Positions 18,409 to 35,291 of a stretch of 64,000 bases of DNA are shown here, one piece after another; the stretch's first letter is position 1; each line of letters starts with the position of its first letter. The stretch lies in assembly GCA_031280825.1 (NCBI GenBank), contig JAITGE010000011.1, positions 115-64,114 on the forward strand, given 5' to 3'. The notes under the pieces were generated by a model that saw nothing but the letters and a program-made list of their open reading frames with translations, was not told where the DNA came from and made no database searches. The position numbers and the translations under genes are program-made. Origin of the DNA: Oscillospiraceae bacterium (GTDB lineage: Bacteria > Bacillota > Clostridia > Oscillospirales > Acutalibacteraceae).

Positions 18409-19620
18409 CTATCCTTTCTGCAAAAATAAATGTTCGTAGAGCTTCACAAGCTGCGCGGAACTGCTGTAATCGCCCGCGGCGGCGTTTTCCGCCAAGCGCC
18501 GCCGCTCAGCGGGATCGTTCAGCAGCGCTGCGATACTCTCCGCCGCGCCATCGTTTTCAAGGGGAACAATGCGCGCGTCATAGCCATCCCGCACCTGCGC
18601 GGCGGCGGTGGGGAAGTCCGTCACCGCCACGGGCTTGCCGAGGGTGAGCGCTTCCATGACGGTCACCGCTTTTCCTTCATAGCGCGAGGGCTGCACATAC
18701 AAATCGCAGGCAGCAATATACGGCGCGGGATTTTCGCGCTTGCCCAGGAAGGTGAAGCAATCTGTCACATCCAACTCCCGCGCCAAACGCGGGAGAGCCT
18801 GTTCGTCGCCGCCGTAGCCGATGATATACCAGTGGAAACGAACCTCCATTGCCTTCATTTTTTGCGCAATACGCAGCGCGTTGTCGAAGGCTTTCGCATA
18901 GCAGTTGCGCCCAACGGTCAAAAGGATAGATCCGCCCGGCGGACGCAAAAAATCACTTGGCGAGTAAGCGGCGGCGCGTTCACGCAGCGCGGCGGCATCC
19001 AGTAAATTTTCAAACACAAAACAGCGTTCGCGCAGCGAAGGATGCACATGGCAAAAGCTTTCCAGAACGCCTTGTGAAACGCAGGCAATGCCGTCAAAGC
19101 GTTCCCAAACACGCAAATCCGCCGTGATGTCCAGCGTGGTTTTGGTGAAATCCGTGTGTACCCACGCCAACTTGCGCGGCGCGGCGCAATGATACGCCGC
19201 CAAATGGTGCGGCCATTGGAAGCTGATAACCGCATCGTAGTCGTCGCTTACGCGCGGTAAAAGCCGGTTGGAATTGCTCCAGTACGCCTGCAGCAAAGCA
19301 TAGACCACAGCATCTGAACCGTAGGGCGGGCAGGGGAACCGCCGCCTGATTTTTTGCTTTGCCAGCACTCTTGCGCAGGCAAAAAGCGGATGCTGCGCGG
19401 CAATGGCTGCAATCGGACGCAAAAAGGTTGCCAGCTTCGCGTTTTCCGGTAGCAAGCGGATGCCTTGCGGTATTTCCCGCAGCAGCGGTCCTGTGTGCGA
19501 GCACAGCAGCAGATCCACATCAATATGTGAAAGCTCCAGTCCGCGCAGCAGCTCGATTAAGCTGCGTTCAATCCCGCCGATTTCCATGCAAAAGCTCGTG
19601 ATGAGCAGCTTTTTTTTCAT
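18409..19620 (-). CDS. Glycosyltransferase family 4 (GT-B), paralog of the neighbouring gene
   Basis: 403 aa. GGIERSLIELL and YVQPSRYEGKAVTVMEALTLGKPV. The ATG overlaps the ilvN stop (ATGA). Confidence 0.85.
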   Translation of the reverse strand: MKKKLLITSFCMEIGGIERSLIELLRGLELSHIDVDLLLCSHTGPLLREIPQGIRLLPENAKLATFLRPIAAIAAQHPLFACARVLAKQKIRRRFPCPPYGSDAVVYALLQAYWSNSNRLLPRVSDDYDAVISFQWPHHLAAYHCAAPRKLAWVHTDFTKTTLDITADLRVWERFDGIACVSQGVLESFCHVHPSLRERCFVFENLLDAAALRERAAAYSPSDFLRPPGGSILLTVGRNCYAKAFDNALRIAQKMKAMEVRFHWYIIGYGGDEQALPRLARELDVTDCFTFLGKRENPAPYIAACDLYVQPSRYEGKAVTVMEALTLGKPVAVTDFPTAAAQVRDGYDARIVPLENDGAAESIAALLNDPAERRRLAENAAAGDYSSSAQLVKLYEHLFLQKG

Positions 19621-20141
19621 GACAAAGCATCGGGCAGACGGCTTTTCTTCAGCTTATAGCGCGGTTCCCCACGCTGCAATGCCGTTATGCCTGTGCGGCA
19701 CATCTCCAGCAGCGGGTGCTGCGCCAGCATTTCCAGGAAAGCGTCAATTTTCTCCGGCTCGCCCGTTAGCTCGAAAATCATGCTGCCGGGCGAAAGATCA
19801 ATGATTTTTGCTTTGTAAACGGTTGCGATTTCGCGCAGGGCAGGGCGGGTGGCTTCATCCGCCCCGACCTTTACGAGCAGCAACTCGCGCAAAACGCCCA
19901 TGCCTGGCTCAATATGGAATACCGCGCGGGTTTCCGTTAGCTTTTCGGTTTGCCGCAGGATTTGCTCCAGTTCTGTTGCGTCGCCGCGCACAACAATGGT
20001 GACGCGCGAAAGCCCGGCGTCGTCCGTCGCCGAAACACTCAGGGAATCGATATTAAAGCCCCGTCTGCCAAACAGGGAGGATACCCTCGCCAGCACCCCG
20101 GCGTGGTTATCCACCAAAACACTCAAAACATTGCGTGACAT
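19617..20141 (-). CDS. ilvN: Acetolactate synthase small (regulatory) subunit
   Basis: 174 aa, colinear with E. coli IlvH as recalled (LSVLVDNHAGVLARVSSLFGRRGFNIDSLSV..TDD..LSRVTIVV). Confidence 0.85.
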   Translation of the reverse strand: MSRNVLSVLVDNHAGVLARVSSLFGRRGFNIDSLSVSATDDAGLSRVTIVVRGDATELEQILRQTEKLTETRAVFHIEPGMGVLRELLLVKVGADEATRPALREIATVYKAKIIDLSPGSMIFELTGEPEKIDAFLEMLAQHPLLEMCRTGITALQRGEPRYKLKKSRLPDALS

Positions 20142-20146
20142 GCCAT

Positions 20147-20767
20147 TTACTCCTTTGTTAGGTTGAAGCCAAGCCGATGCACAGGGCTTGCGCCGTATTC
20201 CTTTAAAGCGATATAATGCGCTTTTGTTCCATAGCCCTTGTGCCGGGCAAAGCCATATTGCGGGTAGAGCGCGTCCAATTCCAGCATCGTCCTATCGCGC
20301 GAAACCTTTGCTAAAACCGAGGCGGCGGCTATGGAGGCGCAGAGCGCGTCCCCCTTCACAACCGTTTGGCAGGGGATTGCCAGCGGCGGCGCACGGTTAC
20401 CGTCCACCAGGGCAAAAGCTGCAGGGGAGGGGAGTCCTTCCACGGCACGGCGCATGGCAAGCAATGCCGCGCCAAGGATATTCAGCCGCGCAATCTCCTC
20501 CAAATTTGCCGAAGCGACGCGATAAGCAACCGCGCCGGCCGTGATGCTTTCAAATAACGCGTCGCGGCGCTTTTCTGTCAGCTGCTTGGAGTCGTTCAAG
20601 CCCGGCGGAATCCACCCTTCAGGCAAAATCACGGCGGCGGCATAAACATCGCCCGCCAGCGGACCGCGCCCGACTTCATCCACACCGCAAACCGCCGCGT
20701 AGCCGCGCCGCGCGATTTCGGCTTCAAACGGCTGAAAGCTGTGTTCCGGCAAGCTGTTCAAGCACAT
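20147..20767 (-). CDS. rnhB: Ribonuclease HII
   Basis: 206 aa with the GVDEVGRGPLAGDV catalytic motif. The listed start overlaps the thrC 3' end by 44 nt, so the true start may be later. Confidence 0.85.
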   Translation of the reverse strand: MCLNSLPEHSFQPFEAEIARRGYAAVCGVDEVGRGPLAGDVYAAAVILPEGWIPPGLNDSKQLTEKRRDALFESITAGAVAYRVASANLEEIARLNILGAALLAMRRAVEGLPSPAAFALVDGNRAPPLAIPCQTVVKGDALCASIAAASVLAKVSRDRTMLELDALYPQYGFARHKGYGTKAHYIALKEYGASPVHRLGFNLTKE

Positions 20768-22268
20768 ACTCCTTCATCTTCCATGGTGAGCAGTTATCCG
20801 TGAAGCGAACCGCTTTATCGCGCAACCGCTTCAGCGGCGTGGGGCAGGGGACACCCGTGAGCGCCTCCAGCGCTACGACGGCGGAAAATTCATCCCCACC
20901 TTCCGGTTCGTTCCCCGTGATTGCGCCCAATACGCTGGCAGCAAATTTGTAGGGGCTGGCGGTGGAAACAACCACCGCCGGGGCGGTGTCGCCCGTCGTG
21001 TTACGGTAATCCTCCAGCACACGCAGCGCAACGGCGGTATGCGTATCGGCAAGATAACCGCAGCGCGTGTAATACTGATGAATCGTGTTCTTGGTCTGCG
21101 TATCATTACAAGCGCCGCCAATAAAGGTTTCATTTAACTCCGCCAGTAGCTCCGGCGGGATCTCATACGTTCCGGTTGCCGCAAGTTGTTTCATCCAGCC
21201 CGCAATTTTTTCACAATCTCCACCTGTCGCCAGCCAGAGCAGCCGCTCAAGGTTGCTGGAAATCAAGATATCCATGGACGGCGAAAGGGTTGTGAAAAAC
21301 GGACGGTTGCGGTCATAGCGCCCTGTTGCAAAAAAATCCGCTAAAATACGGTTGCGGTTGGAGGCGCAGATCAGTTTATCGATGGGCAGCCCCATTTGCT
21401 TGGCAAAATAACCTGCCAAGATATTCCCAAAGTTGCCCGTTGGCACCGCAAAATGCACCGCCTCACCCGGCCACAGGCGCTTCTGGTTGCGCAGATCGCA
21501 ATATGCGCTCACATAGTAAACGATTTGCGGCACAAGCCGCCCCCAATTGATAGAGTTTGCGGAGGAAAAGACCCGCCCCGTTTTTGCCATCGTTTCACGG
21601 AGCGCCGCATCTGTGAAAATCTCTTTGATGCCGCTTTGCGCGTCGTCAAAATTACCGCTTACTCCCGCAACGAGAACGTTGCCGCCTTCCTGCGTAACCA
21701 TTTGCAGCTTTTGCACAGCGCTGACGCCGTCACCGGGGTAAAAGACCATGATGCGCGTCCCGGGGACGTCACGGAAGCCCTCCAGCGCTGCCTTGCCCGT
21801 GTCGCCCGAGGTCGCTACCAGAATGACGATTTCTTTGCCTTGCTGCGTTTTTGCGGCGGAAGCCGTGAGTAAATATGGCAGCAATTGCAGCGCCAAATCT
21901 TTAAAGGCGCAGGTCGGTCCGTGGAAGAGTTCCAACACCGAAAGCGCGCCGCCTTGGCTTGGCAGCGGGCGAACCGGCGCGACGGCAGGGCTTGTGAAGC
22001 CGCTCTCATATGCTGCGCGCGCACATTGGGATACCTGCTCACGCTTCCAGCCGCTGCTTGTGCTGCCGCCGTCCTCGGTTAAAAATTTCGCAAGGATATG
22101 CTCCGCGCGGCCGATATAATCCAGCCGCGCCAGAACGTCCAGCTCGCCCGGCGTAAATTTCGGTATGCTTTCCGGCACAAACAAACCGCCCTCGCGCGAG
22201 ATGCCTTGGGCAATCGCCTGCGCGGCGGTAACGCGAACCTTGCTCTCGCGTGTGCTGGTATAAAGCAT
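20724..22268 (-). CDS. thrC: Threonine synthase (long form)
   Basis: 514 aa. MLYTSTR N-terminus and the PLP-lysine motif FHGPTCAFKD. Confidence 0.9.
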   Translation of the reverse strand: MLYTSTRESKVRVTAAQAIAQGISREGGLFVPESIPKFTPGELDVLARLDYIGRAEHILAKFLTEDGGSTSSGWKREQVSQCARAAYESGFTSPAVAPVRPLPSQGGALSVLELFHGPTCAFKDLALQLLPYLLTASAAKTQQGKEIVILVATSGDTGKAALEGFRDVPGTRIMVFYPGDGVSAVQKLQMVTQEGGNVLVAGVSGNFDDAQSGIKEIFTDAALRETMAKTGRVFSSANSINWGRLVPQIVYYVSAYCDLRNQKRLWPGEAVHFAVPTGNFGNILAGYFAKQMGLPIDKLICASNRNRILADFFATGRYDRNRPFFTTLSPSMDILISSNLERLLWLATGGDCEKIAGWMKQLAATGTYEIPPELLAELNETFIGGACNDTQTKNTIHQYYTRCGYLADTHTAVALRVLEDYRNTTGDTAPAVVVSTASPYKFAASVLGAITGNEPEGGDEFSAVVALEALTGVPCPTPLKRLRDKAVRFTDNCSPWKMKEYVLEQLAGTQLSAV

Positions 22269-22327: not shown

Positions 22328-22567
22328 GCGTTTTTACCGGTTTGGCGGTGACAGCAGGGGAGAGAGGCGGGAGTGTGCGGTGTTTTAACGTGGATCCGTG
22401 CCTTGAGTCTCGAAAATTCCTTCTTTAATAGCGGCGGATACGCTATGCGTACATAAAGTATACTGCTTACGGGTGCACAGCAACAGCGCCAGCCGGTGGC
22501 GCGGGGGATTGTAGGCAAACGAAACGCAAAGGCGAAACTAACTTCGCAAAACTTTTTAGCAGGGGAG

Positions 22568-23884: not shown

Positions 23885-24005
23885 GTGATAAATTCCTTTC
23901 GTTAATGTCGATGATGTCAATGAATGCATGATAATAGCAATGGTGAAGTATGAACCGCCGTTGCTAGGCATATGAATGAGCGAAAACAATCAAAGGGGTG
24001 TTTAT

Positions 24006-25238
24006 ATGCTAGGGAAGAAATATCCGCATCGCTTTATAAAGGGGTTGGTGTCTGCCATTGCAGTATTGCTGTTGCTGCATGGAAGCTCATCAATTTACAT
24101 CGCTAAAGAATCGGAAATTCCAGCAACGGAAGCAAAAGCGACGCCGCAAGCGCAAACATCGGATAGCACGCTGCCAGTAGAAATTGCCGCAAAGGCGGCT
24201 GTCCTCATGGATGCCGGAACAGGTAAGCTGCTGGTGAACTATAACCCGGACGCGCGGTTGTTCCCGGCCTCGGTCACAAAAATCATGCCGCTTTTGCTGG
24301 TGGGGGAAGCCATAGACAGCGGCAAAATCAAGCTCAGCGACCCTGTAACGGTCAGCGCGGCAGCTGCGGGCAAGGGCGGTTCGCAGATCTGGCTCAAGGA
24401 AGGCGAAACCATGACCGTGGAAGAACTGGTGAAAGCAACAGCGATTTACAGCGCGAATGATGCTTGCACGGCATTGGGTGAGTTCCTTGCCGGGAGCGAA
24501 GAAGGCATTGTCAAAATGATGAATGACCGCGCAAAGGAATTGGGAATGCGGAACACAACGTTTGTGAATTGCACGGGCTTGGATGACGACACCACGGAGC
24601 ACCTGACGACCGCGCGGGATATTGCTATCATGAGTCGGGAGCTGCTCAAACATGATTCGGTGATCCGGTTTTCTTCTATCTGGATGGATTCGTTGCGCGA
24701 CGGCAAAACAGAACTGGTGAACACAAACCGCCTCGTGCGCTTTTATGAAGGAGCAACGGGGCTGAAGACTGGCACAACAAGCAAGGCGGGCTGCTGCATT
24801 TCCGCCAGTGCGCTGCGTGAGGGAACGCATCTCGTCGCAGTTGTTTTAGGCAGCGAAAGCAGCAATGATCGCTTTGACACGGCAAAGCGCTTACTGAACT
24901 GGGGCTTTGCAAACTATGCCAGCGTCGTTCCGGAAATTGATCCCGCAGCATTTGCACAGGTGCGCGTGCTGCGCGGTGCGCAACGTTGGATTGTGCCGGA
25001 GCTTCCGGAAGCGATTCGTATCCTCGTGCCAAAGGGAAGCGAGAAGGATTTGCAGCAGCAAATTGATTTGCCATTGGATGTGCAAGCGCCTGTGGAAGCG
25101 GGGCAGACGCTGGGAAAGATTTCTATACTTTTGGACGGTGAAGTGCTTGGCAGCTTCCCACTGAAAGCGGCGGCTTCGGTAGCAAAGCTGGATTTTAAAA
25201 CAGCGTTGCTGCGTGCTCTTTGCGCTTTAGTTGGATAA
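24006..25238 (+). CDS. D-alanyl-D-alanine carboxypeptidase (S11, PBP5-type)
   Basis: 410 aa from the ATG after AAGGGG. Signal/TM segment, SxxK (SVTK), SxN (SAND), KTG (KTGTT). Confidence 0.9.
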   Translation: MLGKKYPHRFIKGLVSAIAVLLLLHGSSSIYIAKESEIPATEAKATPQAQTSDSTLPVEIAAKAAVLMDAGTGKLLVNYNPDARLFPASVTKIMPLLLVGEAIDSGKIKLSDPVTVSAAAAGKGGSQIWLKEGETMTVEELVKATAIYSANDACTALGEFLAGSEEGIVKMMNDRAKELGMRNTTFVNCTGLDDDTTEHLTTARDIAIMSRELLKHDSVIRFSSIWMDSLRDGKTELVNTNRLVRFYEGATGLKTGTTSKAGCCISASALREGTHLVAVVLGSESSNDRFDTAKRLLNWGFANYASVVPEIDPAAFAQVRVLRGAQRWIVPELPEAIRILVPKGSEKDLQQQIDLPLDVQAPVEAGQTLGKISILLDGEVLGSFPLKAAASVAKLDFKTALLRALCALVG

Positions 25239-25269: not shown

Positions 25270-25304
25270 CGGCTGTGCGGCGCAACCCGCATAGCCGTTT
25301 TGTT
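25270..25304 (+). terminator. Rho-independent terminator after the carboxypeptidase gene
   Basis: CGGCTGTGCGG-cgcaac-CCGCATAGCCG (11-bp stem with one G-U pair) followed by TTTTGTT. Confidence 0.8.
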
Positions 25305-25398
25305 CAGGAATATCCCGCGCGTCTTGCACATAGACATGAAAAAAGAAAATGCGGACAAGAAAGCGAACGCCGGAAAATCGAAAGGACGGAACAAGCGA

Positions 25399-26088
25399 AT
25401 GAAATGGATTGCAGCCTTCCCAAATTTACGCGATCTCTTGCCACGCCGCAAACCACTGGGCATCCCAACTCACCTGCCCGGCGCGATGGTCGAAAAAAGT
25501 GCCGAAACCATCCGGCTGCATTGGCAGAAGCTTGCCCTTTTGGGGTTGTTTGGGCTTGGGCTGTTCCTAGGTGCAAGGATGGCGAACGGCAGTGCGCCCG
25601 ATTGGCAGGCGCAATTGGTGCAGCTGCTGCGTTCGGAGCGCTTTGGGCAAGCGCAGCAGAGCCTGCTGGGCAATGCCTTGGGATACTTTTTTGCTGACGG
25701 ACTGTTTCTCTTGGCAGCGTATTTGTTTGGACTTTGCGCGGCAGGCTTGCCTTTCGTGCTTGCGCTGCCGGTGATTCGCGGCTTGGGGCTGGGCGCGGTC
25801 AGCGGTTGGCTCTTTGCGCAATATGGCTTGAGCGGCTTGGGTTACAGCATTCTTGTGCTGTTTCCCTCGGCAGTGCTTTCCATGCTGGTGATGCTTGCTG
25901 CCTGCAAAGAAAGCATGCTCATGAGCGGCGATATGTTGCTCATCGCAAGCGGAAAATCGGATCGCGTGGAAAGCAATTTCCGGATGTTTACCGCCCGCTA
26001 CTTTGTGCTACTACTGCTTTGCGCAGGCGCTGCGATCCTCGACGCCGCTTGCTTCCGCGCGTTTTCCGGAATGTTTCCGGCAATCTGA
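25399..26088 (+). CDS. Polytopic membrane protein, SpoIIM-like (tentative)
   Basis: About 229 aa with 5-6 TM segments. Position next to a Xer-type recombinase recalls the B. subtilis spoIIM-fur-ripX neighbourhood. Weak sigma-E-like ATA, 16 nt, CATAgACA at 25310..25336. Start chosen after the terminator. Confidence 0.4.
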   Translation: MKWIAAFPNLRDLLPRRKPLGIPTHLPGAMVEKSAETIRLHWQKLALLGLFGLGLFLGARMANGSAPDWQAQLVQLLRSERFGQAQQSLLGNALGYFFADGLFLLAAYLFGLCAAGLPFVLALPVIRGLGLGAVSGWLFAQYGLSGLGYSILVLFPSAVLSMLVMLAACKESMLMSGDMLLIASGKSDRVESNFRMFTARYFVLLLLCAGAAILDAACFRAFSGMFPAI

Positions 26089-26120: not shown

Positions 26121-27137
26121 TCATCCGTCGGTATCCGGTTGAACGCCTTCCATGGCCAGCGGATTTTTCTCCACAGCCTCGCGCAACTGACGGCTCGCCA
26201 AATGGGTATAGATCTCCGTGGTCGTAAGATTTTCGTGTCCAAGGATTTCTTTGAGCTGCAGTACGTCCACATCGTTTTGATATAGCAGTGTCGCCGCCGT
26301 GTGGCGCAGCTTATGGACGGAATAGCCGCGTCCGTCAAGACCTGCCAGCTTCAGGTATTTTTCCAGCATCAGCTCCACTGAACGCTGGTTGATGCGACGG
26401 TTGTTGCGGCTGATAAACAGCGCATCCCGATCCTTCTGTTGCACAGAATCCTGCGGGCGCACGCGTAAGTATCGCCCAATAGCGGCAATGCAGGCGTGGT
26501 TCAGGTAGACCACGCGTTCCTTGCTGCCCTTGCCGCGAATGCGCAGTGTTCCTTCCTGCAACCGGATATCCGGTAAATTGATACCGCATAGCTCCGAAAG
26601 ACGCATGCCGCAATTCAGAAATAGAATCAACATGCAGCTGTCGCGTTCACGGTAATCGCCTTCAACGGCATCTAGCAGGGATCGGCATTCTTCCAAAGAA
26701 AGGTATTTCGGCAGCGTCTTGTCAATTTTCGGCGATGTCAGCTCCTCCATGGGGTTGGATTCCAAAATATGCCGCGAAACGACCAGCCAGCGAAAGAAGC
26801 GATTGATGGAAACAGTCTTGCGGGCGCGGGTGCGGGGATTGTTGTCGCGTTCCGTGCGGCAATAGGCAAGAAATTCTGTCGCGATTTGCACGGAAATCGC
26901 GCCAAAGAAGTCTTCAGCGGGCTTGCCGTCGATCCAACTGAGGTTTTCAGCGTCATAATCCACGCCGGGGAAGCAGTGCGCGCACAACGCCGGCTCGTGT
27001 TCTACGATAAAAGCAAAAAAACAGCGTAAATCGGAGGCGTATTCCAGGATCGTCAGATCCGCCTTGCTCAGGTTGGTCAGGTAATCCAAATAATAGCGCA
27101 CCAAGGGCGGGAGGGTATGAAAATCATCGCGTTTCAT
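26121..27137 (-). CDS. Tyrosine site-specific recombinase, Xer family (XerD/XerS-like)
   Basis: 338 aa. Catalytic region GMRLSEL, HKLRHTAAT, LGHENLTTTEIYTH. The N-terminal domain is extended relative to ~300-aa XerC/D. Confidence 0.9.
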   Translation of the reverse strand: MKRDDFHTLPPLVRYYLDYLTNLSKADLTILEYASDLRCFFAFIVEHEPALCAHCFPGVDYDAENLSWIDGKPAEDFFGAISVQIATEFLAYCRTERDNNPRTRARKTVSINRFFRWLVVSRHILESNPMEELTSPKIDKTLPKYLSLEECRSLLDAVEGDYRERDSCMLILFLNCGMRLSELCGINLPDIRLQEGTLRIRGKGSKERVVYLNHACIAAIGRYLRVRPQDSVQQKDRDALFISRNNRRINQRSVELMLEKYLKLAGLDGRGYSVHKLRHTAATLLYQNDVDVLQLKEILGHENLTTTEIYTHLASRQLREAVEKNPLAMEGVQPDTDG

Positions 27138-27162
27138 AGGAGACTCTCCATCTCTTAGATTA

Positions 27163-27190
27163 ACTTCGCATAATTCATATTTTACGAATC
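27163..27190. other. Candidate dif-like recombinase core site (11-6-11)
   Basis: ACTTCGCATAA-TTCATA-TTTTACGAATC. The arms are imperfect inverted repeats (7/11). The site lies 26-53 nt upstream of the recombinase ATG. Confidence 0.4.
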
Positions 27191-27234
27191 TTAGGGCTTA
27201 GAAGGCGAATACGGGCACATGCGGGCTATGCGCT

Positions 27235-27263
27235 ATTTTAACACAACCCTGCGCGTGCGTCAA
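27235..27263 (-). promoter_or_regulatory. Candidate sigma-A promoter of the recombinase gene
   Basis: Minus strand: TTGACG, 17 nt, TAAAAT, about 100 nt upstream of the ATG. Confidence 0.55.
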
Positions 27264-27475
27264 CGCCCACGCAAAATCCGCAGAAAACACGGCGCTAACT
27301 CCTGCCAGTATTCCAGCCGCACCCGCGCTTCCAGAAGCTCCAGCAGGTCGAGCGCATCCACCTGCCGCTCCTGACACAGACGGTAACGGCACATCTGCAC
27401 GTATGCCGCTTCTACCCTGTCATGTTCCCACATCACGAGGTTCGACAACTGCAGCAGCTTGTCTTCAGCGGTCAT
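27260..27475 (-). CDS. Hypothetical 71-aa helical protein
   Basis: The ATG overlaps the stop of the Zot-like gene (ATGA). No family recognised. Confidence 0.45.
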   Translation of the reverse strand: MTAEDKLLQLSNLVMWEHDRVEAAYVQMCRYRLCQERQVDALDLLELLEARVRLEYWQELAPCFLRILRGR

Positions 27476-28185
27476 ACGGCGAACACGCCCAGTTCTTCCA
27501 GCGACGGCAAAGGCTCACGGACAACAGGCGTGTAATATGTGTCGTACAGCCCATAGTACGGCTTACGCGCGAATTTGCAGTCTTTTACGTGTGCTTCGCA
27601 AACCTCCCAAGATACCTTACGCAATCCGCGCTTTAACCCTCTGCCTACAAGCTCTGTGTTACGGTCGGCTACCTTGGCTAGGGTTGTCTTGCTGATGTCA
27701 ACATAAGATGTATTTCGAAAAAACGGATGCTGGGAAAGATGCACGCAATAATCTGCGGCTCGGCGAATATTCAGGTCAACGGCATCATAAGCTTGCGAGG
27801 ATAACCACAGGCGGATATTGTTCTTGCGGAGAAAGTTGAAAAACTCATCATCGGAAGCAGTCCAATCTTTGTAACCACGAGCTGGCCAGAGAGTACGACA
27901 CTCATCAAGGAGAATAATACAATCGTGAAAATCATGATTATAGAGAAAAGCTTTATCCAGTTCCATGCGGTGAACACCTTGTTTAACGACTTCAACCAAA
28001 GGCAAACGAACAGCTCCATTGACAGGATAAGTGGAGAATAATGTCAAATCCAAGCGTTCCGAAATCTCTGTAGCCATACACAAAAGCGAAGACTTACCGG
28101 CACCACGGTCACCAACGATAAAAAGACATGTAGCATCGCCCAGAAGCCTTTTTATTTTTCTATTAATGAAATTTGAGAACCACAT
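27472..28185 (-). CDS. Zot/pI-like P-loop NTPase (inovirus assembly-ATPase family)
   Basis: 237 aa. Walker A GDRGAGKSS, Walker B CIILLDECRTLWPAR, then FFNFLRKNNIRLWLSSQAYDAVDLNIRR, matching the Zot-family pattern DEaq..w..R...f..hRh.g.d....Q....id..iR. The N-terminal two thirds are AT-rich. Confidence 0.7.
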   Translation of the reverse strand: MWFSNFINRKIKRLLGDATCLFIVGDRGAGKSSLLCMATEISERLDLTLFSTYPVNGAVRLPLVEVVKQGVHRMELDKAFLYNHDFHDCIILLDECRTLWPARGYKDWTASDDEFFNFLRKNNIRLWLSSQAYDAVDLNIRRAADYCVHLSQHPFFRNTSYVDISKTTLAKVADRNTELVGRGLKRGLRKVSWEVCEAHVKDCKFARKPYYGLYDTYYTPVVREPLPSLEELGVFAV

Positions 28186-28187
28186 AT

Positions 28188-28337
28188 TTAAAGCCTAACC
28201 ACCTTCCGAAACAGTAAAATAATGGAAATAAACGACAAAATGCCAGACAAAAACAAAGCCCAACGAATATCAGGTGTGACAAAAAACCACGTTAACCAAT
28301 CATAAAAACGGCTAAAAAAATCTGACCAGTAAGCCAT
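28188..28337 (-). CDS. 49-aa membrane protein with filamentous-phage coat-like architecture
   Basis: MAYWSDFFSRFYDWLTWFFVTPDIRW (amphipathic/acidic), ALFLSGILSFISIILLF (TM), RKVVRL (basic tail). RBS AAAGGGG lies 6 nt upstream. The gene ends 2 nt before the Zot-like ATG. Confidence 0.5.
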   Translation of the reverse strand: MAYWSDFFSRFYDWLTWFFVTPDIRWALFLSGILSFISIILLFRKVVRL

Positions 28338-28343
28338 AACAAA

Positions 28344-28359
28344 CCCCTTTCGAAAGGGG
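28344..28359. repeat. Perfect 16-bp palindrome CCCCTTTCGAAAGGGG
   Basis: Read directly. On the minus strand it is followed by TTTGTT and then the ATG of the 49-aa ORF. Confidence 0.9.
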
Positions 28360-28401
28360 ACTTCGTTAAAAATAAACCACACCTGACTGTCTGCCGGAAA
28401 A

Positions 28402-28659
28402 ATGAATTTCCCGCGCGTGGTGAAATTAAAACCCCGGCAACCGCGAAGCCTGGAATACATTCCTAAAAGCGCGAAAGTCGGCAGAACCCACGATGATTTT
28501 CTGGCGCATGTGGTTGGAAACGGTCTCAATTCCTGGGTCGAAACGGACACCGTGATCGGACGCGTCGGCGGAAAAGTCATCCTTACGCCGGATTTCACGT
28601 TCTGCAATTTTCAGGCGGGGCTGCTGCCGGACAACAGAACCTCGCCGGAAGCCGCCCTG
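28402..28659 (+). pseudogene. Relic of an IS30-family transposase (central fragment only)
   Basis: The plus-frame translation ...GNGLNSWVETDTVIGRVGGKVILT...LLPDNRTSPEA resembles the IS30 DDE region G(H/D)WE.DTV.G..G.k..LlTl.ER...lpdkts.av. There is no N-terminal HTH and no distal D/E region. Confidence 0.35.
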
Positions 28660-28766
28660 AGGAGCCCTCTTTTCGGAGTTGTTTGCCTTTGCCTTGTTAT
28701 CGGCGCACCTCCCCAAGATCCCTGTCCATCGCATTTCCGGTTCCTTTCCCATGCTTACCGCAGCGC

Positions 28767-30761
28767 TCACCCAGGTGGGGCGTGCCCCGTGCCGCCCTGC
28801 AATTCCTCAATGCGATCCCGCAAATAGGCGGCGTGCTCAAATTCCAACAGCTTCGCCGCCGCCTTCATTTCCACCGTCAACTGGCGTATCATCACTTCCC
28901 GCTCAGCGCGAGAGAGCCGCTTTGTTCCGTCGCTTGGCTTTTCCTTTGTGTCCTTCGGGATTTTACCCGTGATTTCGATGATTTCGCGCACATCCTTGCG
29001 AATGGTTTGCGGCACGATGCCGTGGGCTTCGTTATACGCGAGCTGCCTCTCACGGCGACGCTGGGTTTCCAGTAGCGCGCGCTCCATGGAAGGCGTCACT
29101 TCATCCCCATAAAGAATTACACGCCCCTCAGCGTTCCGCGCAGCGCGACCGATGGTTTGGATCAGCGACGTTTGTGAGCGTAAAAATCCTTCCTTGTCAG
29201 CATCCAACACCGCAACAAGCGATACCTCCGGCAAATCCAATCCCTCGCGAAGCAAATTGATGCCCACCAGCACATCGAATTCGCCCAAGCGCAAATCCCG
29301 CACGATTTCCATGCGCTCCATCGTTTGCACGTCACTGTGCATATATCGCACACGAATTCCGACCTTCTCAAAATACGCCGTCAAATCCTCCGCCATGCGC
29401 TTGGTGAGCGTTGTAACCAGAACACGTTCGCTCCGCGCGGCGCGGATATTGATTTCTGAAACCAGATCATCGATCTGCCCGGGCGTGGGGCGCACCTCAA
29501 CTTCGGGATCCACCAATCCTGTAGGGCGAATGATCTGCTCGGCGACCGCGCCGCTGTTTTGATATTCAAATTCGCCGGGCGTTGCACTGACGAAGATCTT
29601 CTGCCCAAACCGCTCCCAGACCTCGTCAAAGCACAGGGGGCGGTTATCATACGCGGAGGGCAAACGAAAGCCGTAGCCGATCAATTCATCCTTACGCGCG
29701 CGGTCGCCGGCGTACATTGCCCGGAGCTGCGGCAGCATCACGTGGGATTCATCCACAAACACAAGAAAATCCGAAGGGAAAAAATCCAGCAGCGTGAACG
29801 GTGCAGAACCGGGCGACCGCCCCGCCATCACGCGGGAATAATTTTCAATTCCCTTGCAAAAGCCTGTTTCACGCAGCATTTCCATGTCATAAAGCGTGCG
29901 CTGTCGAATGCGCTGCGCCTCAATAAGCTTCCCGCCACGCTCAAATTCCGCCACGCGATCCATCATTTCCGCCTGGATGGTTACGATGGCGTCCTCCAAA
30001 CGCTCCGGCGGCACAACATAATGTGAAGCCGGATAAATCGCCACATGCTGCAGCGTCGCCCGCACCTCGCCTGTAAGCGCAGTAATTTCGCTGATGCGCT
30101 CAATCTCATCGCCGAAAAACTCCACGCGCAGCGCAACCTCGCTGGATCTTGAAGGAAAAATTTCGACAACATCACCGCGCACACGGAACTTATTGCGCGT
30201 GAAGCTCAGATCGTTGCGTTCATAACGAATTTCTATCAGCCGCCCAATCAGCCATTCGCGGCTGCGTTCCATGCCGGGGCGCAGCGAAACCACCATACGC
30301 TTATAATCATCGGGCGTGCCCAGTGAATAAATGCACGAAACGCTCGAAACGATGATTACATCCCGCCGCTCCACCAACGCAGAGGTTGCGGAATGGCGCA
30401 GTTTATCAATTTCCTCATTGATAGAGGAATCCTTTTCAATGTAGGTATCGGTCGCGGAAATATACGCTTCGGGCTGATAATAATCATAGTAGCTCACAAA
30501 ATATTCAACTGCGTTTTTGGGAAAGAACTCGCGGAACTCACCACAGAGTTGCGCTGCCAGGGTCTTGTTATGCGCAAGCACCAAAGCCGGGCGGTTCGCT
30601 TGGGCAATGATGTTCGCCATGGTGAAGGTTTTACCCGAACCCGTAACGCCCAGTAGCGTCTGCGCGTCCTCCCCTGCCCGCAGCCCGGCAAGCAGTGCGG
30701 CGACCGCCTGCGGTTGGTCGCCCGTCGGCGCAAAAGTGGAATGCAACTGAAACGCATCCAT
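28767..30761 (-). CDS. uvrB: Excinuclease ABC subunit B
   Basis: 664 aa. [10 protein letters not shown], Walker [10 protein letters not shown]-terminal UVR domain ([14 protein letters not shown]). Confidence 0.97.
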
Positions 30762-30776
30762 AGCTTGCTTCCTTTC

Positions 30777-32699
30777 TCAGCTTTTTGCCGGTCTGCGCGC
30801 CGCGCGCAAAAGCGCGTCTAACAGGCAATTGGTGTAAATCTGTATGGCCGGCGCGTCGGCGGCATTGCTCTTAAAATGCGTTTTATCCGCCTGCAGCAAA
30901 TCCGCTCTGCCGTCAATCGCCGCCGCCCAATCCGCCACCGTTACATAGCTGTATTTCGCCTCCAGCGTACGCATATACTGCATTGTTTTGTAGGCGCTCC
31001 AGCCTGCGTCCCAACGCCCGTCAAAGGGCGTAACAAAAATCAACCGGTGCCCCGGCGGCAAATCCGCGGCAATATCCTCAATCGCTTTGACGTATGGATG
31101 GATGCCGTTCGCACCCAAAGCGACGATCACGGTTTCACGCAGCACATCCGCCTGCACCCACGCGCGCAAAAGAGCAAGCCCCTGCGTAAGGTTACGCGAA
31201 CCCTTGGCATCAATCACGCAGTTGGGCATCGCAGCCAGCAAAGCCGTGCGAGCGTCCAGGCAAACAGAATCCCCAATAACCGAAACGCCCCGCAGAATGC
31301 CGCTCACAGGCTTAGCGGCGCTTGCAGACGGCGCGGCAGCCGCGGGCGGCTTCAGTGGCTTTGGCAGGCTCTTTTGCAGCTGCGGCAATGCGTTAAACCC
31401 ATCAGCAAACCGCACGGGACGCGGGTGGAGCGCTGCCGCAAGCCGCTTGACATCGCGCACCGCATCCGCATCCTGCGCAATTTCCTGCAACAGCAGTCCT
31501 TCTTCAATGGAATTCACCGCCGGTGCGCGATAAAGCATATAACCGTTCAGCCCAACGCACGCGCAAAGCAGCGCCGCCAAAGCAGGCTTGGCGAATTTCA
31601 GTTTAATTGCAAGAGCCTTTCCCTGCCAAACAGGCTCCAGCAAATAGTATTCGAACGCCGAAAAAGCCAAGGAAAGCGAAAATGACGCCAGCGCCGCCCC
31701 GGCAGGAGGTTTGACGCGCTGCGAAAGCACAATAAACAGCGGCCAATGGTACAGATACATATTATAGGAAAGCTCACCCAAAACCGACAGCAGCTTGGGT
31801 TCGCCGCGGCGCGAGGACACGCTTTCATGGAGCACCCTTGCTGAAAAGATCAACAAAGCGGAAAAAATACCCGCCAGCGGCATACCCAGCAAAAACGCTT
31901 TTTGCTCGGCGAAGGAAAGCTTCGCCGCCAGCACACCAAGCCCGGCAACGGAAACGCACAGCCCTGTGGCAGACAACGCGCGCACGGGTATCATTTTCAG
32001 CAAGCGAGCTGCCCGTTCCCCCGTGCGCATTCCAAAGAGCGCACCGACCGCCGCACCCAGCATAAAGGGAAAGCCATGTGACGCGGTGGAATAATAGGGC
32101 GCGGAAAAATCACCCGCAGCCTCCCGCACCGCAAGAAACATTTTGAGGTAGGACAGCCCCGCCAAGAGCAAAGCCACACCAAACAGGGCAATGCGCAAAT
32201 CCGCACGGCGGCGCGGCGCACATTTTGTGTACAATCTGCTCAGCACAGCGAACAATAAGCCCCAAATGATGTAAAAATGCGCTTCCACAGCCAGCGACCA
32301 GGTGTGCAAAAGCAGATGCGGCAGCAGCCGCGCCTCGTAGCCGCCGCCGCGCAGTGTTTCATAATAGTTCGTAATAAACCCCAGCGCAGCAGCAGCCTGC
32401 CGCCTGAGATCCGCCGTAAAATCAGGCGCAACCAGGAGCGCAAAGGGCAGCGCAAGCCCCACCGCGCAGGCAAGCGCGGGAAAAATGCGCAAAAAACGCC
32501 GTCTTGCGTAAGCAAGCAGCGAAAATCGCCCGCTTTTACGATATTCCTCCAGGAGCAGTGCGGTGATAAGGTAGCCTGAAAAAACAAAAAAAACATCCAC
32601 GCCAAGAAAGCCGCCGGGCAGCAGCTTGGGGAAGAAATGATATACCAGCACCAGCGACAAGCCCAGCACCCGCACGATGCTAAACCAACGAATCCGCAT
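30777..32699 (-). CDS. Acyltransferase-3 / SGNH two-domain O-acetyltransferase (OatA-like)
   Basis: 640 aa. N-terminal multi-TM AT3 domain (GFLGVDVFFVFSGYLIT) and a C-terminal SGNH domain with a GDS block (VIGDSV). Confidence 0.85.
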   Translation of the reverse strand: MRIRWFSIVRVLGLSLVLVYHFFPKLLPGGFLGVDVFFVFSGYLITALLLEEYRKSGRFSLLAYARRRFLRIFPALACAVGLALPFALLVAPDFTADLRRQAAAALGFITNYYETLRGGGYEARLLPHLLLHTWSLAVEAHFYIIWGLLFAVLSRLYTKCAPRRRADLRIALFGVALLLAGLSYLKMFLAVREAAGDFSAPYYSTASHGFPFMLGAAVGALFGMRTGERAARLLKMIPVRALSATGLCVSVAGLGVLAAKLSFAEQKAFLLGMPLAGIFSALLIFSARVLHESVSSRRGEPKLLSVLGELSYNMYLYHWPLFIVLSQRVKPPAGAALASFSLSLAFSAFEYYLLEPVWQGKALAIKLKFAKPALAALLCACVGLNGYMLYRAPAVNSIEEGLLLQEIAQDADAVRDVKRLAAALHPRPVRFADGFNALPQLQKSLPKPLKPPAAAAPSASAAKPVSGILRGVSVIGDSVCLDARTALLAAMPNCVIDAKGSRNLTQGLALLRAWVQADVLRETVIVALGANGIHPYVKAIEDIAADLPPGHRLIFVTPFDGRWDAGWSAYKTMQYMRTLEAKYSYVTVADWAAAIDGRADLLQADKTHFKSNAADAPAIQIYTNCLLDALLRAARRPAKS

Positions 32700-32745
32700 C
32701 TTACCCCCACATTTTCCCTGCTTTTACACACAAATCAGCATCCGC

Positions 32746-33642
32746 TCAATTTCCCCGGTATCTTGCACCCATATTCCACACGCCCATTTCCTGCTTGCCG
32801 TTTTTTTCTATGATGGCTCCGATGCCGTCAAACACGCCCGCGCGAAAGCCACCCTCATATCGCCAACCCTCCGGGCTGCGGTAGATGCCTGTGCCATCCG
32901 GCAGCCCTGCCGCAAATGAGCCTTCATATCGCACAGCTTCACCCTCATAATACACCCCGTGCCCCTCAAACAAGCCGCTCAAAAAGCCGCCTTCATAGCG
33001 AAACGTGCCCTGCGGATCTTTATATTCGCCCTGCCCCTCAAAATGTCCGCCCGCAAAGTCTCCTTGGTAGACCAACGCCCCGCCGACGGCGCAATATGTC
33101 CCCGCACCCCATGCGTCCCCGCGCAAAAATCCGCCCGTGTAGCAGCTGCCGTCAGCGAAGATAAAGCGCCCCTGCCCCGTTTGCCCGCGCTCACCCCAAA
33201 GCCCCTCATAATCCCAACCGTATTCCGAAAAAAAACGCGGTCGCCGCGACTCATCCGCAGCAAACGTCAGCACGCCGCCGCTTTCGCTTTCCAAAACGCC
33301 CTCACCCGTCATTTCCCCTTGCGCAAATTGCCCGGCATAACGCCAGCCCTCAACCGAAGCGAATGTACCCGCGCCGTCAAAACGACCGTTGGCAAATGTG
33401 CCGATATAAACGCTGCCATCGGCGAAGGTTACCGCGCCGCTGCCGTCAAAGCGACCGAGGCGCAGCGTGCCTGAATACCGCAGCAAAGCGGCGTAATCGT
33501 GCCGATCCTGCCTTGAAACAACGCCAAACACTCCCAGCGCGTAACACGCAAGGAAGAGCATAAGCAACAGAACGCCGCACGCTTTCAGCCGCGTTGACGC
33601 AAAAAATTTCGACATCTTCCGGATGGCCGGCATTCGCTTCAT
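32746..33642 (-). CDS. Membrane-anchored MORN-repeat protein
   Basis: 298 aa from MKRMPAIRK; the ATG overlaps the upstream stop (ATGA). One TM, then ~10 repeats of the Y.G.F..G...G.G type. Confidence 0.75.
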   Translation of the reverse strand: MKRMPAIRKMSKFFASTRLKACGVLLLMLFLACYALGVFGVVSRQDRHDYAALLRYSGTLRLGRFDGSGAVTFADGSVYIGTFANGRFDGAGTFASVEGWRYAGQFAQGEMTGEGVLESESGGVLTFAADESRRPRFFSEYGWDYEGLWGERGQTGQGRFIFADGSCYTGGFLRGDAWGAGTYCAVGGALVYQGDFAGGHFEGQGEYKDPQGTFRYEGGFLSGLFEGHGVYYEGEAVRYEGSFAAGLPDGTGIYRSPEGWRYEGGFRAGVFDGIGAIIEKNGKQEMGVWNMGARYRGN

Positions 33643-35291
33643 CCCCCGCTCAGGTTCTCCTCCGCGTCCTCGCGCAGCGCGGTCAAAAGCCGCCGCGCCG
33701 CTTCCTCCATCGTGCATTCGCCGGGCGGGAACTGTACCGCCGCCATGGTCTGGTGTCCACCGCCACCCATTCGTTCCATGATCCGCTGCACATTGCGCGC
33801 ACCCAGCGAACGCGCGGAAATGCAAATTTGCTCATTTTCGCTGAAAAGAACGAACGCGGCGTCTACATCCTCCAGGTTCAGCAGCTCGTCGGCCGCCTGT
33901 GCGCAAAGCAACCGCCATGTGCCGCCTTCGCCCTCCCCAGCCTCCGCCGAGCCAAGCGCCACGCTCACAGCGCAATGATCAAAGAGCTTCGCGCCGGCAA
34001 CAATCTCCGTGCGGCGGCGAAATTCCTCCTGCCCGCCAGCGAACAGGCGGCGCACGCGAACCGTATCCGCGCCACGCCCGCGCAGCCATGCCGCCGCCTC
34101 AAAGGTGGACGCCGCCGTGCGCAGCAAAAATCCGCGTGTGTCCAAATAAATCCCGGCTAAAAGCGCTTCTGCCTGCACACGGCTGAGCTTGGGCGCGGGC
34201 GCGGAATACTGCAGCAGCTCCACCACCATTTCGCTGGCGGAGGACGCTCCCGGCTCATGGTGAAATACCACCGCGCCGCGCAAATAATCCACCGCCTGCC
34301 GGTGATGGTCAATCACCGCCAATGCTTTTGCCTGCGCGCACAGCTCCGGGCTTTCAGCCTGGTGCGCCGTATGGGTATCCACCACAATCACCAGTGTTTT
34401 AACGCTCAGTTCCGCGATCGCCTGCTTTGGCGGCAAAATCGGAATAGCGCTTGCATCCACCCGCAAATGCTCCACAAGCGGCTGCGCAAGCGAATTTGCC
34501 ACATCCATAACAATCGCTGCGGGCTTGCCAAGGCATCGCGCCAACGCGCAAACGCCCACCGCCGCGCCAAGGCAATCAAAATCGCCGCTGCGGTGCCCCA
34601 TCACCAACACGCGCTCGCTGCCCTTGATAAGCTCTGCAAAGGCCGTGGCAAGAATGCGCACACGCACCTTTTCGGTTTTTTCAACGCGCTTGCTCACCCC
34701 GCCAAAAAACTGATAACTCAGATCGGGATTTTTCACCGCTGCCTGATCGCCGCCGCGCCCCAACGCCAATTCCAGCGCCTGGCGGCTGTTTTTCTCACAT
34801 TCGGCAAAGCTCTCGCCCTGCCCAACACCGATAGAAAGCGTCACATCCACCTTGCGTTCGCGGAAAGTGAAGCCCCGCACGGCATCCAAAATTGGGAAAC
34901 GGGTTTGCAGCATCTGCTCCAGCGCGGGTTGCAGCACAATGAGCAAAAAACGGTTATCCGCCAGCTTTGCCAGCAGACCGCTGTGCTTGACCGCCCATTC
35001 CTCCAGAAGCGCCTCCACGCCCGCGCGGATTTCTACCCGTTCGCTTTCACGCAGTTCCTGCCGCAGTTCATCCACACCGTCAAGCGCAATGCGCAGCACG
35101 CAGGCATGGCGGCGTTTCAGCTGTCGGCGCAGCGCTGCGGGATCGTCGGTTTCCGGCGAAAGCGCCTCCGCTTCCTGCCGCTTGCGCTTGCGGCGAAGGC
35201 GGAACAATGCCGCGGCAAGCAGCACACAAGCAACCAGCAGCAACACCGCCGCTCCGAACAAGGCGGCAATCAGGCGATCTGTTCCCTCCAT
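33639..35291 (-). CDS. GdpP-like DHH/DHHA1 phosphoesterase with a degenerate GGDEF domain
   Basis: 550 aa. One N-terminal TM, GGDEF-like region (LSIGVGQGESF), DHH-family motifs (GHRSGDFDCLGA, VVDTH) and the DHHA1 GGGH motif (MGGGGHQ). Confidence 0.7.
   Translation of the reverse strand: MEGTDRLIAALFGAAVLLLVACVLLAAALFRLRRKRKRQEAEALSPETDDPAALRRQLKRRHACVLRIALDGVDELRQELRESERVEIRAGVEALLEEWAVKHSGLLAKLADNRFLLIVLQPALEQMLQTRFPILDAVRGFTFRERKVDVTLSIGVGQGESFAECEKNSRQALELALGRGGDQAAVKNPDLSYQFFGGVSKRVEKTEKVRVRILATAFAELIKGSERVLVMGHRSGDFDCLGAAVGVCALARCLGKPAAIVMDVANSLAQPLVEHLRVDASAIPILPPKQAIAELSVKTLVIVVDTHTAHQAESPELCAQAKALAVIDHHRQAVDYLRGAVVFHHEPGASSASEMVVELLQYSAPAPKLSRVQAEALLAGIYLDTRGFLLRTAASTFEAAAWLRGRGADTVRVRRLFAGGQEEFRRRTEIVAGAKLFDHCAVSVALGSAEAGEGEGGTWRLLCAQAADELLNLEDVDAAFVLFSENEQICISARSLGARNVQRIMERMGGGGHQTMAAVQFPPGECTMEEAARRLLTALREDAEENLSGG

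Follow-up and report, generated by a model that had tools for sequence, protein, structure and literature searches.

In the open-access literature, to which our search was confined, the only single-recombinase Xer systems named are XerS, XerH, XerL and archaeal XerA, and a Clostridia system is not described. XerS acts on difSL in streptococci and lactococci (Le Bourgeois 2007, PMC1914069; Nolivos 2010, PMC2965235), XerH on difH in Helicobacter and Campylobacter (Debowski 2012, PMC3325230; Bebel 2016, PMC5241119), and XerL on the dif of Legionellales, with the mobile element LME-1 (PMC9765430). The two-recombinase XerCD/dif system is exploited in turn by filamentous-phage IMEXs of the CTX, VGJ and TLC types in Vibrio and Xanthomonas (reviewed in PMC5357621). 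Regarding Clostridia, canonical dif sites have been predicted near the GC-skew shift in Peptococcaceae; the sites predicted for C. botulinum lie about 174 degrees from that shift, and none was obtained for C. perfringens or C. beijerinckii (Kono 2011, PMC3025954).

The locus described here recalls the first of these arrangements. In the window (the whole 64-kb stretch of DNA analysed), the 28-mer ACTTCGCATAA-TTCATA-TTTTACGAATC, at 27163..27190 of the forward strand, lies 26-53 nt upstream of the ATG (27137, reverse strand) of a gene for a Xer-family tyrosine recombinase. In the orientation of that gene it reads GATTCGTAAAA TATGAA TTATGCGAAGT, an 11-6-11 layout with arms complementary at 7/11 positions. 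A sequence-only reading had taken it for a tyrosine-recombinase core site in a difSL/xerS-like arrangement, and had its sequence, position, arm match and distance from the ATG right. We regard it as likely that the recombinase encoded 26 nt downstream uses the 28-mer as its core recombination site, and that this is a dif-type site at the replication terminus. Four lines of evidence, counted as independent, appear to support this: conservation of the site with co-variation of its arms, a GC-skew switch, the converging polarity of GGGNAGGG motifs, and phage attL/attR junctions. The coordinates of the features are collected in table 1.

Table 1. Features of the window that bear on the candidate site, with strand and supporting evidence.
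Feature	Position	Strand	Evidence
Four GGGNAGGG motifs, pointing to the site	19328..20849	+	Genes and GC skew of the region favour the opposite strand
338-aa Xer-family tyrosine recombinase	26121..27137	-	Profile matches, motifs, synteny with SpoIIM and DacB
28-bp 11-6-11 core site, dif-like; read as attR and as the site that the chromosome now uses	27163..27190	-	Sequence; orthologous palindromes; same position as attR in 10 prophage-bearing loci
Gene-proximal arm TTATGCGAAGT, read as the host arm	27163..27173	-	Identical in L001, L002 and L004
6-nt central (crossover) region TATGAA	27174..27179	-	6-nt spacer constant; attL/attR repeats end just after the centre
Gene-distal arm GATTCGTAAAA, degenerate	27180..27190	-	Integration topology; phage attP arm and centre; CCCT-N-A flank
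Remnant of an inovirus-like prophage, truncated and low in GC (IMEX stump), in the orientation of the recombinase gene	27191..28359	-	Profile matches and homologues
Promoter-like TTGACG-17-TAAAAT, TG-extended, towards the site and recombinase gene	27235..27263	-	In phage-derived DNA; overlaps the orf71 stop at 27260
orf71 (71 aa), homologue of orf81, the last ORF before attP in free phage L063/L066	27260..27475	-	MTAEDKLL.. vs MTDAEKLL..; same place after the Zot-like gene
237-aa Zot-family P-loop morphogenesis ATPase	27472..28185	-	Pfam Zot, E 9.4e-6; PHROG Zot-like, 1.6e-7
49-aa hydrophobic ORF directly upstream of the Zot-like gene; counterpart of a 48-aa ORF in L064	28188..28337	-	Position and hydrophobicity only
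Possible second junction GTCAGGTGTGG TTTATT TTTAACGAAGT (tentative)	28360..28387	-	Right arm alone site-like, 8/11
Six consecutive GGGNAGGG motifs, pointing to the site	30672..38827	-	Motif scan

Downstream of the recombinase gene, and converging on it, lie genes for SpoIIM (25300..26088) and a DacB-type carboxypeptidase (23976..25238). On the other side, the phage ORFs are followed by about 400 nt of uncertain origin and then by uvrB; a 141-aa ORF at 28402-28827, considered as IS30-transposase-like, has no Pfam or PHROG match and we make no claim for it. The nearest relatives retain synteny with SpoIIM, DacB and a radical-SAM gene. The flank upstream of the site differs, with radA, a methyltransferase and a GNAT acetyltransferase in two of these relatives (L002 and L004) versus uvrB in the window.

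Judged on the window alone, the 7/11 symmetry of the site is at the level of chance: 699 inverted repeats (565 + 113 + 14 + 7) of the 11-6-11 type reach at least 7/11 in the 64 kb. Canonical dif sequences of E. coli, B. subtilis and D. hafniense served as references for window-only scoring; the site differs from them at 6-7 of the 22 arm positions, and random matches tie with it. The arm matches given in the sequence-only reading, 8/11 between the left arm and E. coli or B. subtilis dif and 5/11 between the right arm and XerD arms, are arithmetically correct. Read as a complement, the arm TTATGCGAAGT agrees at 10/11 positions with the XerC-side arm of the dif predicted for Heliobacterium modesticaldum; it agrees at 9/11 with the XerD-side arm of D. 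hafniense, and at 8-9/11 with XerD-side arms generally. The B. subtilis-type dif sequence was checked against the supplement of Kono 2011 (PMC3025954). The 28-mer occurs once in the 64-kb window when up to 3 mismatches are allowed, neither a second full site nor a second tyrosine recombinase gene was found there, and the site is likewise single within each of the 3-20 kb loci compared. All the evidence for a real site comes from the comparison with other genomes.

Two further candidates in the window were rejected as neither significant nor conserved. One is an exact copy of the 11-mer ACTTCGCAAAA at 22541. The other is the possible second half-site at 28360-28387, which is followed by a hairpin, CCCCTTTCGAAAGGGG, at 28344..28359; by our own estimate, a match of its quality would turn up in a region of that size with a chance of about 0.2. 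The TCTTAG repeats that had been noted on either side of the 28-mer are present (27153..27158 and 27189..27194), but they were not found in the orthologous loci. Tyrosine recombinases produce no target duplication.

The orthologues were sampled at one genome per species, giving 62 Clostridia loci with proteins 27-78% identical to the recombinase. A comparison of their upstream regions, close to a check that the sequence-only reading had proposed, reveals a conserved, symmetric 11-6-11 site: a palindrome, mostly of 10-11/11, is found upstream of the gene in 29 of the 62. In 20 of the 62 loci it is of 9-11/11 and lies within 400 nt of the gene, one further copy being partly masked by Ns, and in 8 further loci it lies 0.66-2 kb upstream. 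The spacer is always 6 nt long and its sequence varies between lineages. The inner part of the arms, C(A/T)AAA-N6-TTT(A/T)G, is conserved across the orthologous sites. The outer 6 nt vary by lineage (ACTTCG, ATTTCG, ATTATA, ACCCGG, TTGTCG, TAGTCA, ATTCTA, ATTGCG, GCTAAG) yet remain symmetric, as in the arm pairs ACTTCGCAAAA/TTTTGCGAAGT, ATTTCGCTAAA/TTTAGCGAAAT, ATTATACAAAA/TTTTGTATAAT, ACCCGGCAAAA/TTTTGCCGGGT and TAGTCACAAAA/TTTTGTGACTA. The three loci that share the gene-proximal arm of the window letter for letter (table 1) have recombinases that are 56-78% identical, and the distal arm GATTCGTAAAA is mismatched to its counterpart in L004, ACTTCGTAAAA, at the two outermost bases only. The linkage of gene and site is not universal, since roughly one orthologous gene in two lacks an adjacent site and is not at a skew switch. 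In Clostridium sensu stricto a better palindrome, of the canonical XerD-arm type, is found 0.6-0.8 kb downstream of the gene, so the 8/11 match upstream may not be the site in that group.

The same loci provide clues on the chromosomal position of the site. In 19 of the 21 loci that have the palindrome, GC skew changes from positive on the upstream side to negative on the downstream side (group means +0.11 and -0.08); none of the 13 loci that lack it shows this change (group means -0.08 and -0.10). The skew switch goes with the site and not with the gene, and the pattern does not arise artificially from the use of the gene to orient the loci. In 14/17 loci the highest cumulative skew falls between -1.2 and +2.6 kb from the site, and in the window, within 6 kb on each side, at +46 nt. 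Furthermore, in the closed 1.55-Mb chromosome of Amygdalobacter indicium (CP118866) the site lies at 51% of the sequence, counted from the start of the record, wherever that falls. Against a terminal position, the cumulative maximum of the whole 64-kb window lies near 11 kb and not at 27 kb; the left flank between 11 and 24 kb has a slightly negative skew and minus-strand genes, and gene orientation on the left is mixed overall. The suggestion of the sequence-only reading that this might be a terminus locus is borne out by the site-bearing loci and by the local maximum in the window, the profile of the whole window being less clear on its left side.

Motif polarity would fit this picture. GGGNAGGG is the canonical KOPS motif, which may not be the one that a Clostridial FtsK reads; 14 of its 17 copies in the window point to the site, the nearest 10 all included. 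Pooled over 28 loci, 29 of 35 copies point towards the site, a polarity that is not independent of the skew, since G-rich motifs partly follow it. No motif clearly better than GGGNAGGG emerged from an unbiased k-mer polarity search. Overall, the data support a location of the site at the replication terminus.

The recombinase itself belongs to the Xer subgroup of tyrosine recombinases, closest to XerC, XerD and XerA. It has the full set of motifs with conserved catalytic residues: GMRLSEL (from residue 177), GKGSKER (202), HKLRHT (275), LGHENL (299) and EIYTH (308). Its best NCBIfam matches are XerC (TIGR02224, 210 bits against a cutoff of 335), XerD (TIGR02225, 199 against 330) and XerA (194 against 220), all under the equivalog cutoffs. 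The XerS model (NF003462) gives 142.5 bits against 267 and aligns with residues 163-324 only, which contradicts the earlier impression of a XerS-like N-terminus. The best PDB chains are XerA (4a8e, 120 bits) and XerD, at 119-121 bits, with XerH at 77 bits and no Cre chain among the matches at E <= 1e-5. By these measures the protein falls outside the families XerS, XerH, XerC, XerD and XerA as defined by sequence. In public databases members of the family are named 'tyrosine-type recombinase/integrase', 'XerC' or 'XerD'.

These matches raise an alternative that deserves most weight, namely a conventional two-recombinase system with the site as its dif, in which the neighbouring gene would be the XerC or XerD (CodV/RipX) orthologue and its partner a second Xer encoded elsewhere. 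The ranking of XerC and XerD as top models, the names in public records and the 8-10/11 likeness of the arms to canonical dif arms all agree with it. Further points on the same side are that ripX of B. subtilis also adjoins spoIIM and that C. difficile has several non-mobile recombinases. Yet the XerC and XerD scores are far below the cutoffs, the arms of most lineages are perfectly or nearly perfectly symmetric over 11 positions, unlike XerC/XerD sites, and in Clostridium the canonical approach of Kono 2011 gave implausibly placed sites or failed. We therefore consider a two-recombinase system unlikely. The 11/11 arm symmetry suggests that the adjacent enzyme most likely acts on the arms as a homodimer.

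Phages that integrate at the site furnish evidence of another kind. A 10.6-kb viral contig with a terminal repeat resolves into a circular genome of 8,443 nt with genes for an XRE-type repressor, a Rep-like protein, small hydrophobic proteins, a Zot-like ATPase, orf60 and orf81; PHROG annotation yields the repressor and a weak Zot match and nothing else useful. Some 200 nt past orf81, in the same order as in the window, lies its attP, ACTTCGCAAAA CATATC ACCTTGGAAAT, in which a perfect host-type distal arm and centre are followed by an unrelated arm. About 40 viral and metagenome contigs encode a relative of the window's Zot-like protein, with 44-51% identity. A metagenome scan for such relatives returned 36 further loci, 10 of which are on long contigs. 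In all 10 the Zot-like gene lies 1.2-9 kb upstream of a recombinase orthologue (47-54% identical) and is co-oriented with it, and in 9 of the 10 SpoIIM lies beyond the recombinase gene. Neither the free phage nor the prophages contain a recombinase or integrase gene detectable by tblastn, Pfam or PHROGs.

In nine of the ten long contigs the recombinase gene is preceded, at a distance of 65-362 nt, by a full palindrome. It is perfect in eight, ATTATACAAAA TAAAT(A/G) TTTTGTATAAT, and 10/11 in the ninth (L099), ATTTCGCAAAA TTAATA TTTTGCGTAAT. The same nine have a partial site 6.9-10.4 kb further upstream, consisting of the distal arm and centre (17/17 identical) and an unrelated other arm. The direct repeat stops immediately behind the central 6 nt in each of the nine attL/attR pairs, while on the other side it may extend for 2-75 bp, so that the crossovers are bounded by the centre of the site. 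The tenth contig (L101) holds a tandem array, with a degenerate distal arm at the gene-side site and a second, G2P-encoding element in between that mimics the opposite arm. In L099, the host DNA to the left of attL shows homology to the flank on the radA side of empty loci; none of the empty genomes among the loci is close enough for a comparison of the DNA itself, the identity being only 65-70%. The phages encode G2P-type or viral Rep proteins, with REP_ORF2-G2P matches of 1.9e-14 and 1.9e-15 in L078 and L101. The putative inovirus-type traits of these elements, as known from sequence, are a weak Zot match (E 9e-6 for the protein of the window), a Gp8 match that is weak only, and genomes of 7-10 kb. 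The junction pattern, with full and partial copies of the site, an attP that mimics it and no integrase of the element's own, is the one typical of IMEXs. When viral contigs were scanned for the pattern, the result was mostly unrelated tailed-phage contexts and distant recombinase-plus-site modules, and no more IMEXs of the window type.

The order found in the window, with the Zot-like gene, orf71, about 70 nt, the distal arm, the centre, the proximal arm and the recombinase gene, is that of the right end of the prophages compared, and the window site therefore corresponds to the gene-side junction (attR). We interpret it as the gene-side junction of a truncated phage that integrated at a dif-like site, the only junction to survive. 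The prophage appears since to have been reduced to about 1.2 kb containing a small ORF, the Zot-like ATPase and orf71. The IMEX remnant postulated from the sequence thus gains support both from the attL/attR pairs of relatives and from the truncated Zot-like prophage in the window. The degenerate distal arm GATTCGTAAAA was most likely contributed by the phage attP. Outside it lies CCCTAA, which resembles the attP flank gccctga-ACTTCGCAAAA, CCCT-N-A being common to the window and phage L066. A phage-derived distal arm accounts for the window copy being the least symmetric of the family. It also replaces the view of this right arm as a poor XerD arm: the degenerate arm is the gene-distal one and probably not of host origin.

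The vicinity of the phage invites a second alternative, in which the 338-aa protein is a prophage integrase and the 28-mer its attL/attR core, with no role in chromosome maintenance. The remnant does adjoin the site, PHROG 'integrase' families match the recombinase, and similar palindromes are found about 100-500 nt upstream of distant tyrosine recombinases (26-30% identity) on some viral contigs of 25-45 kb. However, the gene lies outside the attL-attR interval in 10/10 occupied loci, gene and site occur together in about 29 loci without a Zot-type phage, the gene keeps its host synteny (SpoIIM, DacB), a recombinase gene is missing from the free circular phage and from the prophages, and the site follows the GC-skew switch. 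With the gene outside the att-bounded element, and present where there is no phage, we reject this reading as very improbable.

Slightly less credible still is a regulatory role, with the palindrome acting as a transcriptional operator or as a 5'-UTR RNA hairpin of the recombinase gene and not as a recombination site. It does have a promoter-like site on one side and the start codon on the other, a perfect palindrome is able to form a hairpin, and binding of the enzyme at the site could autoregulate the gene, which would be compatible with our main explanation. The promoter-like sequence that the sequence-only reading called good is indeed present and runs into the 3' end of the phage orf71. 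It therefore probably belongs to the phage DNA, from which it would read into the recombinase gene, and is probably not the native promoter of that gene. Against regulation as the function of the palindrome, the phage junctions break exactly at the central 6 nt, the site follows the skew switch whatever its distance from the gene (-45 to -1954 nt), and the A-U-closed stems, fixed 6-nt spacer and conserved inner arm fit recognition by a protein. A hairpin in the leader RNA is not favoured either, the arms being unpaired in the minimum free energy (MFE) structure and the MFE z-score being -0.23. Finally, a functionless chance inverted repeat, which the roughly 700 comparable repeats in the window might suggest, is the least plausible explanation of all, contradicted by a gene-proximal arm identical in three orthologous loci and a family conserved across Clostridia, and opposed as well by the skew, the GGGNAGGG motifs and the junctions.

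Taking the 28-mer as a dif-type core site, we put forward the following mechanism. Two monomers of the recombinase would bind the two 11-bp arms, and two sites would synapse, presumably within a tetramer as in Xer, Cre and other tyrosine recombinases. Cleavage at positions 6 bp apart would then allow strand exchange over the 6-bp centre. For the host, the most likely role is chromosome dimer resolution at division, probably under the control of FtsK/SpoIIIE; this role, like the single-recombinase status, we infer. Small inovirus-like phages without an integrase, whose attP copies one arm and the centre, would use the host enzyme to integrate, after which the attL at the far end would be dead and the site beside the recombinase gene live. 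Integration through the host Xer enzyme would make them IMEXs (integrative elements that exploit Xer).

In a wider scenario, to which we give even chances, many Clostridia (Oscillospiraceae and relatives, Tissierellales-type lineages and some Clostridium) would rely for chromosome dimer resolution on a single XerC/D-derived recombinase and a near-perfectly palindromic dif. They would then add another independent single-recombinase system to XerS, XerH, XerL and archaeal XerA. Its dif would travel with the gene in about half of the lineages and be parasitised by two or more families of Gram-positive gut inoviruses that have no integrase and mimic opposite arms. Clostridia are a large class of medical and ecological importance, and canonical dif prediction has failed or been implausible in Clostridium; a defined site and enzyme would fill that gap, also for the Oscillospiraceae that are dominant in the human gut. 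The site could serve as a simple terminus marker in draft and metagenome-assembled genomes. It would also explain lysogeny of integrase-less, filamentous-type phages in Gram-positive anaerobes, and exact att sites help to locate such phages, as in the approximately 40 contigs recovered here. In addition, genetic work in Clostridia could benefit from a compact recombinase whose site, of 28 bp, is loxP-like.

Among the known systems, XerS/difSL shares with this locus a single Xer-family gene with the site immediately upstream, a position at the terminus and a host in the Firmicutes. It differs in the protein, the XerS model matching the catalytic half only (142 bits versus 267), in the site, difSL being asymmetric and of 31 bp whereas the Clostridia family has a near-perfect palindrome of 28 bp (11-6-11), and in the linkage of gene and site, which here holds in only about half of the orthologous loci. 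With XerH/difH the common points are a dif near the gene and, if our reading of the Clostridia enzyme is correct, a single recombinase; the arm sequences differ, and the recombinase here matches XerH less well (77 bits) than it does XerA or XerD (about 120 bits). The case of XerL and LME-1 is similar in that integration of a mobile element revealed the dif, in the long uninterrupted inverted arms and, presumably, in the single recombinase. Orthologues without an adjacent site also resemble xerL, whose gene and dif are far apart. In contrast to that case, the recombinase here is of another lineage and the exploiting elements are inovirus-like phages. Like the CTX, VGJ and TLC IMEXs, these phages have no integrase, carry a dif-mimicking attP, can form tandem arrays (L101) and decay to remnants, and leave one junction dead and one live. 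Unlike them, they have Gram-positive anaerobes as hosts and target a symmetric site, to which a single protein species probably binds; any one attP reproduces one arm and the centre, and the two phage families copy opposite arms. The loxP site of phage P1, set in the 11-6-11 frame, is ACTTCGTATAG CATACA TTATACGAAGT. Its right arm is identical to that of L003 and matches the window's gene-proximal arm at 10/11 positions, and Cre/loxP is likewise a module of a recombinase and an adjacent site with a 6-bp crossover. The likeness to Cre/loxP is in the DNA site only, however, and the role here would be a chromosomal one at the terminus. Archaeal XerA/dif also has a single Xer, as we propose for Clostridia, and by PDB sequence XerA is as close to the recombinase as XerD is; nevertheless, the NCBIfam XerA score stays below its cutoff and the host is bacterial. 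The Clostridia system itself is apparently undescribed, and as to its kind it is best filed as a single-recombinase Xer/dif module with an IMEX.

The palindrome adjacent to the recombinase gene is absent at about half of the orthologous genes. Thirteen of these palindrome-less loci had sufficient flanking sequence for a skew test, and all 13 lie in DNA of uniformly negative skew, that is, on the lagging strand and away from the terminus. If these recombinase genes have sites at all, the sites must lie in other parts of the genome. At the loci of Clostridium sensu stricto we found a second palindrome, with 10-11/11 matching arms of the canonical XerD-arm type (e.g., AGTTAACATAA TAATTA TTATGTTAACT), which follows the recombinase gene at a distance of 0.6-0.8 kb, near the skew switch. 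This second palindrome may be the real dif in these genomes. Published predictions for the genus are available (Kono et al. 2011, supplementary table, PMC3025954): Clostridium perfringens 13 and C. beijerinckii are without a dif prediction, and the dif sequences predicted in C. botulinum E3 and B are probably wrong, because they fall approximately 174-176 degrees off the GC-skew shift point.

Conservation of the site extends beyond its arms. A CCCT-N-A element abuts the outer end of the gene-distal arm in the window, in the orthologous loci L001-L004, L015, L025, L029 and L055, and in the attP of the free phage L066; its complement, T-N-AGGGG(A/G), abuts the outer end of the gene-proximal arm in L012, L017, L024, L026, L030 and L071-L099. 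This flank element is conserved and restricted to one side of the site, with none of the loci compared carrying it on both. It may confer polarity on a site that is symmetric in other respects. Alternatively, it may be a Shine-Dalgarno-like element.

Among the integrase-less prophages (IMEXs), we identified a tandem array in the metagenome contig L101, whose second element, of approximately 5.5 kb, encodes G2P and has the opposite gene orientation. The attP of this element, TGTTCGAAAAG TAAATA TTTTGTATCAA, mimics the gene-proximal arm, and thus opposite arms of the same site have been copied by two phage families. Furthermore, in five prophage contigs (L071, L072, L076, L078 and L079) the attL/attR direct repeat runs 30-75 bp past the arm on the distal side; in L071 and L072 the extended repeat, in the left flanks, is 67 bp long and 100% identical. 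The extension reflects either additional host-like sequence on the phage or a host flank that is itself what remains of a previous phage, as seen in the window. Six prophage-like viral contigs of 25-45 kb (L103, L105, L107, L113, L114 and L119) contain ATTTCGCATAA-N6-TTATGCGAAGT approximately 100-500 nt upstream of a tyrosine recombinase. These recombinases are distant (26-30% identity), the L114 protein being 297 aa in length. Together, enzyme and site resemble a module carried by the phage, with a site of the type described here.

Two further site-like sequences occur in the window. A half-site immediately precedes the hairpin CCCCTTTCGAAAGGGG and the first ORF of the phage remnant; it has no statistical significance, and could represent the junction at the far end of a mini-element of 1.2 kb. 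The family arm recurs as an exact copy 4.6 kb away from the site, just beyond the point where the radical-SAM gene ends (3'). Its conservation was looked for in L001 and L002 and is absent from both, and it may be a chance match or an old junction. Separately, an ORF fragment near the remnant had an apparent resemblance to the middle portion of a transposase of the IS30 type; Pfam and PHROGs gave no match.

Coordinates of the site-related features (window positions unless a locus is named)
Feature	Location	Strand	Sequence or remark
Flanks of the site	27152..27162 and 27191..27197		compared with site flanks of orthologous and prophage loci
loxP-like stretch	27163..27177	-	TTATGCGAAGTTAAT
Half-site	28360..28387	-	GTCAGGTGTGG TTTATT TTTAACGAAGT
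Family arm copy	22541..22551	+	ACTTCGCAAAA; minus-strand reading AAAAAG TTTTGCGAAGT
ORF fragment	28402..28827	+	between phage remnant and uvrB
Second palindrome	L016, L019, L027: +1532..+1740; L038: +3904; L041: -1382		from gene start
Tandem IMEX array	L101 8594..14127		
No adjacent palindrome	L008-L010, L018, L020-L022, L031, L032, L039, L040, L046, L048, L059, L061		

With respect to known systems, the arms of the site in the window and in the orthologous locus L003 strikingly resemble, in nucleotide sequence, those of loxP, which in the 11-6-11 frame is ACTTCGTATAG CATACA TTATACGAAGT. The right arm of the L003 site is identical to the loxP arm and the gene-proximal arm of the window matches it at 10/11 positions. 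The recombinase of the window is not Cre-like in protein sequence.
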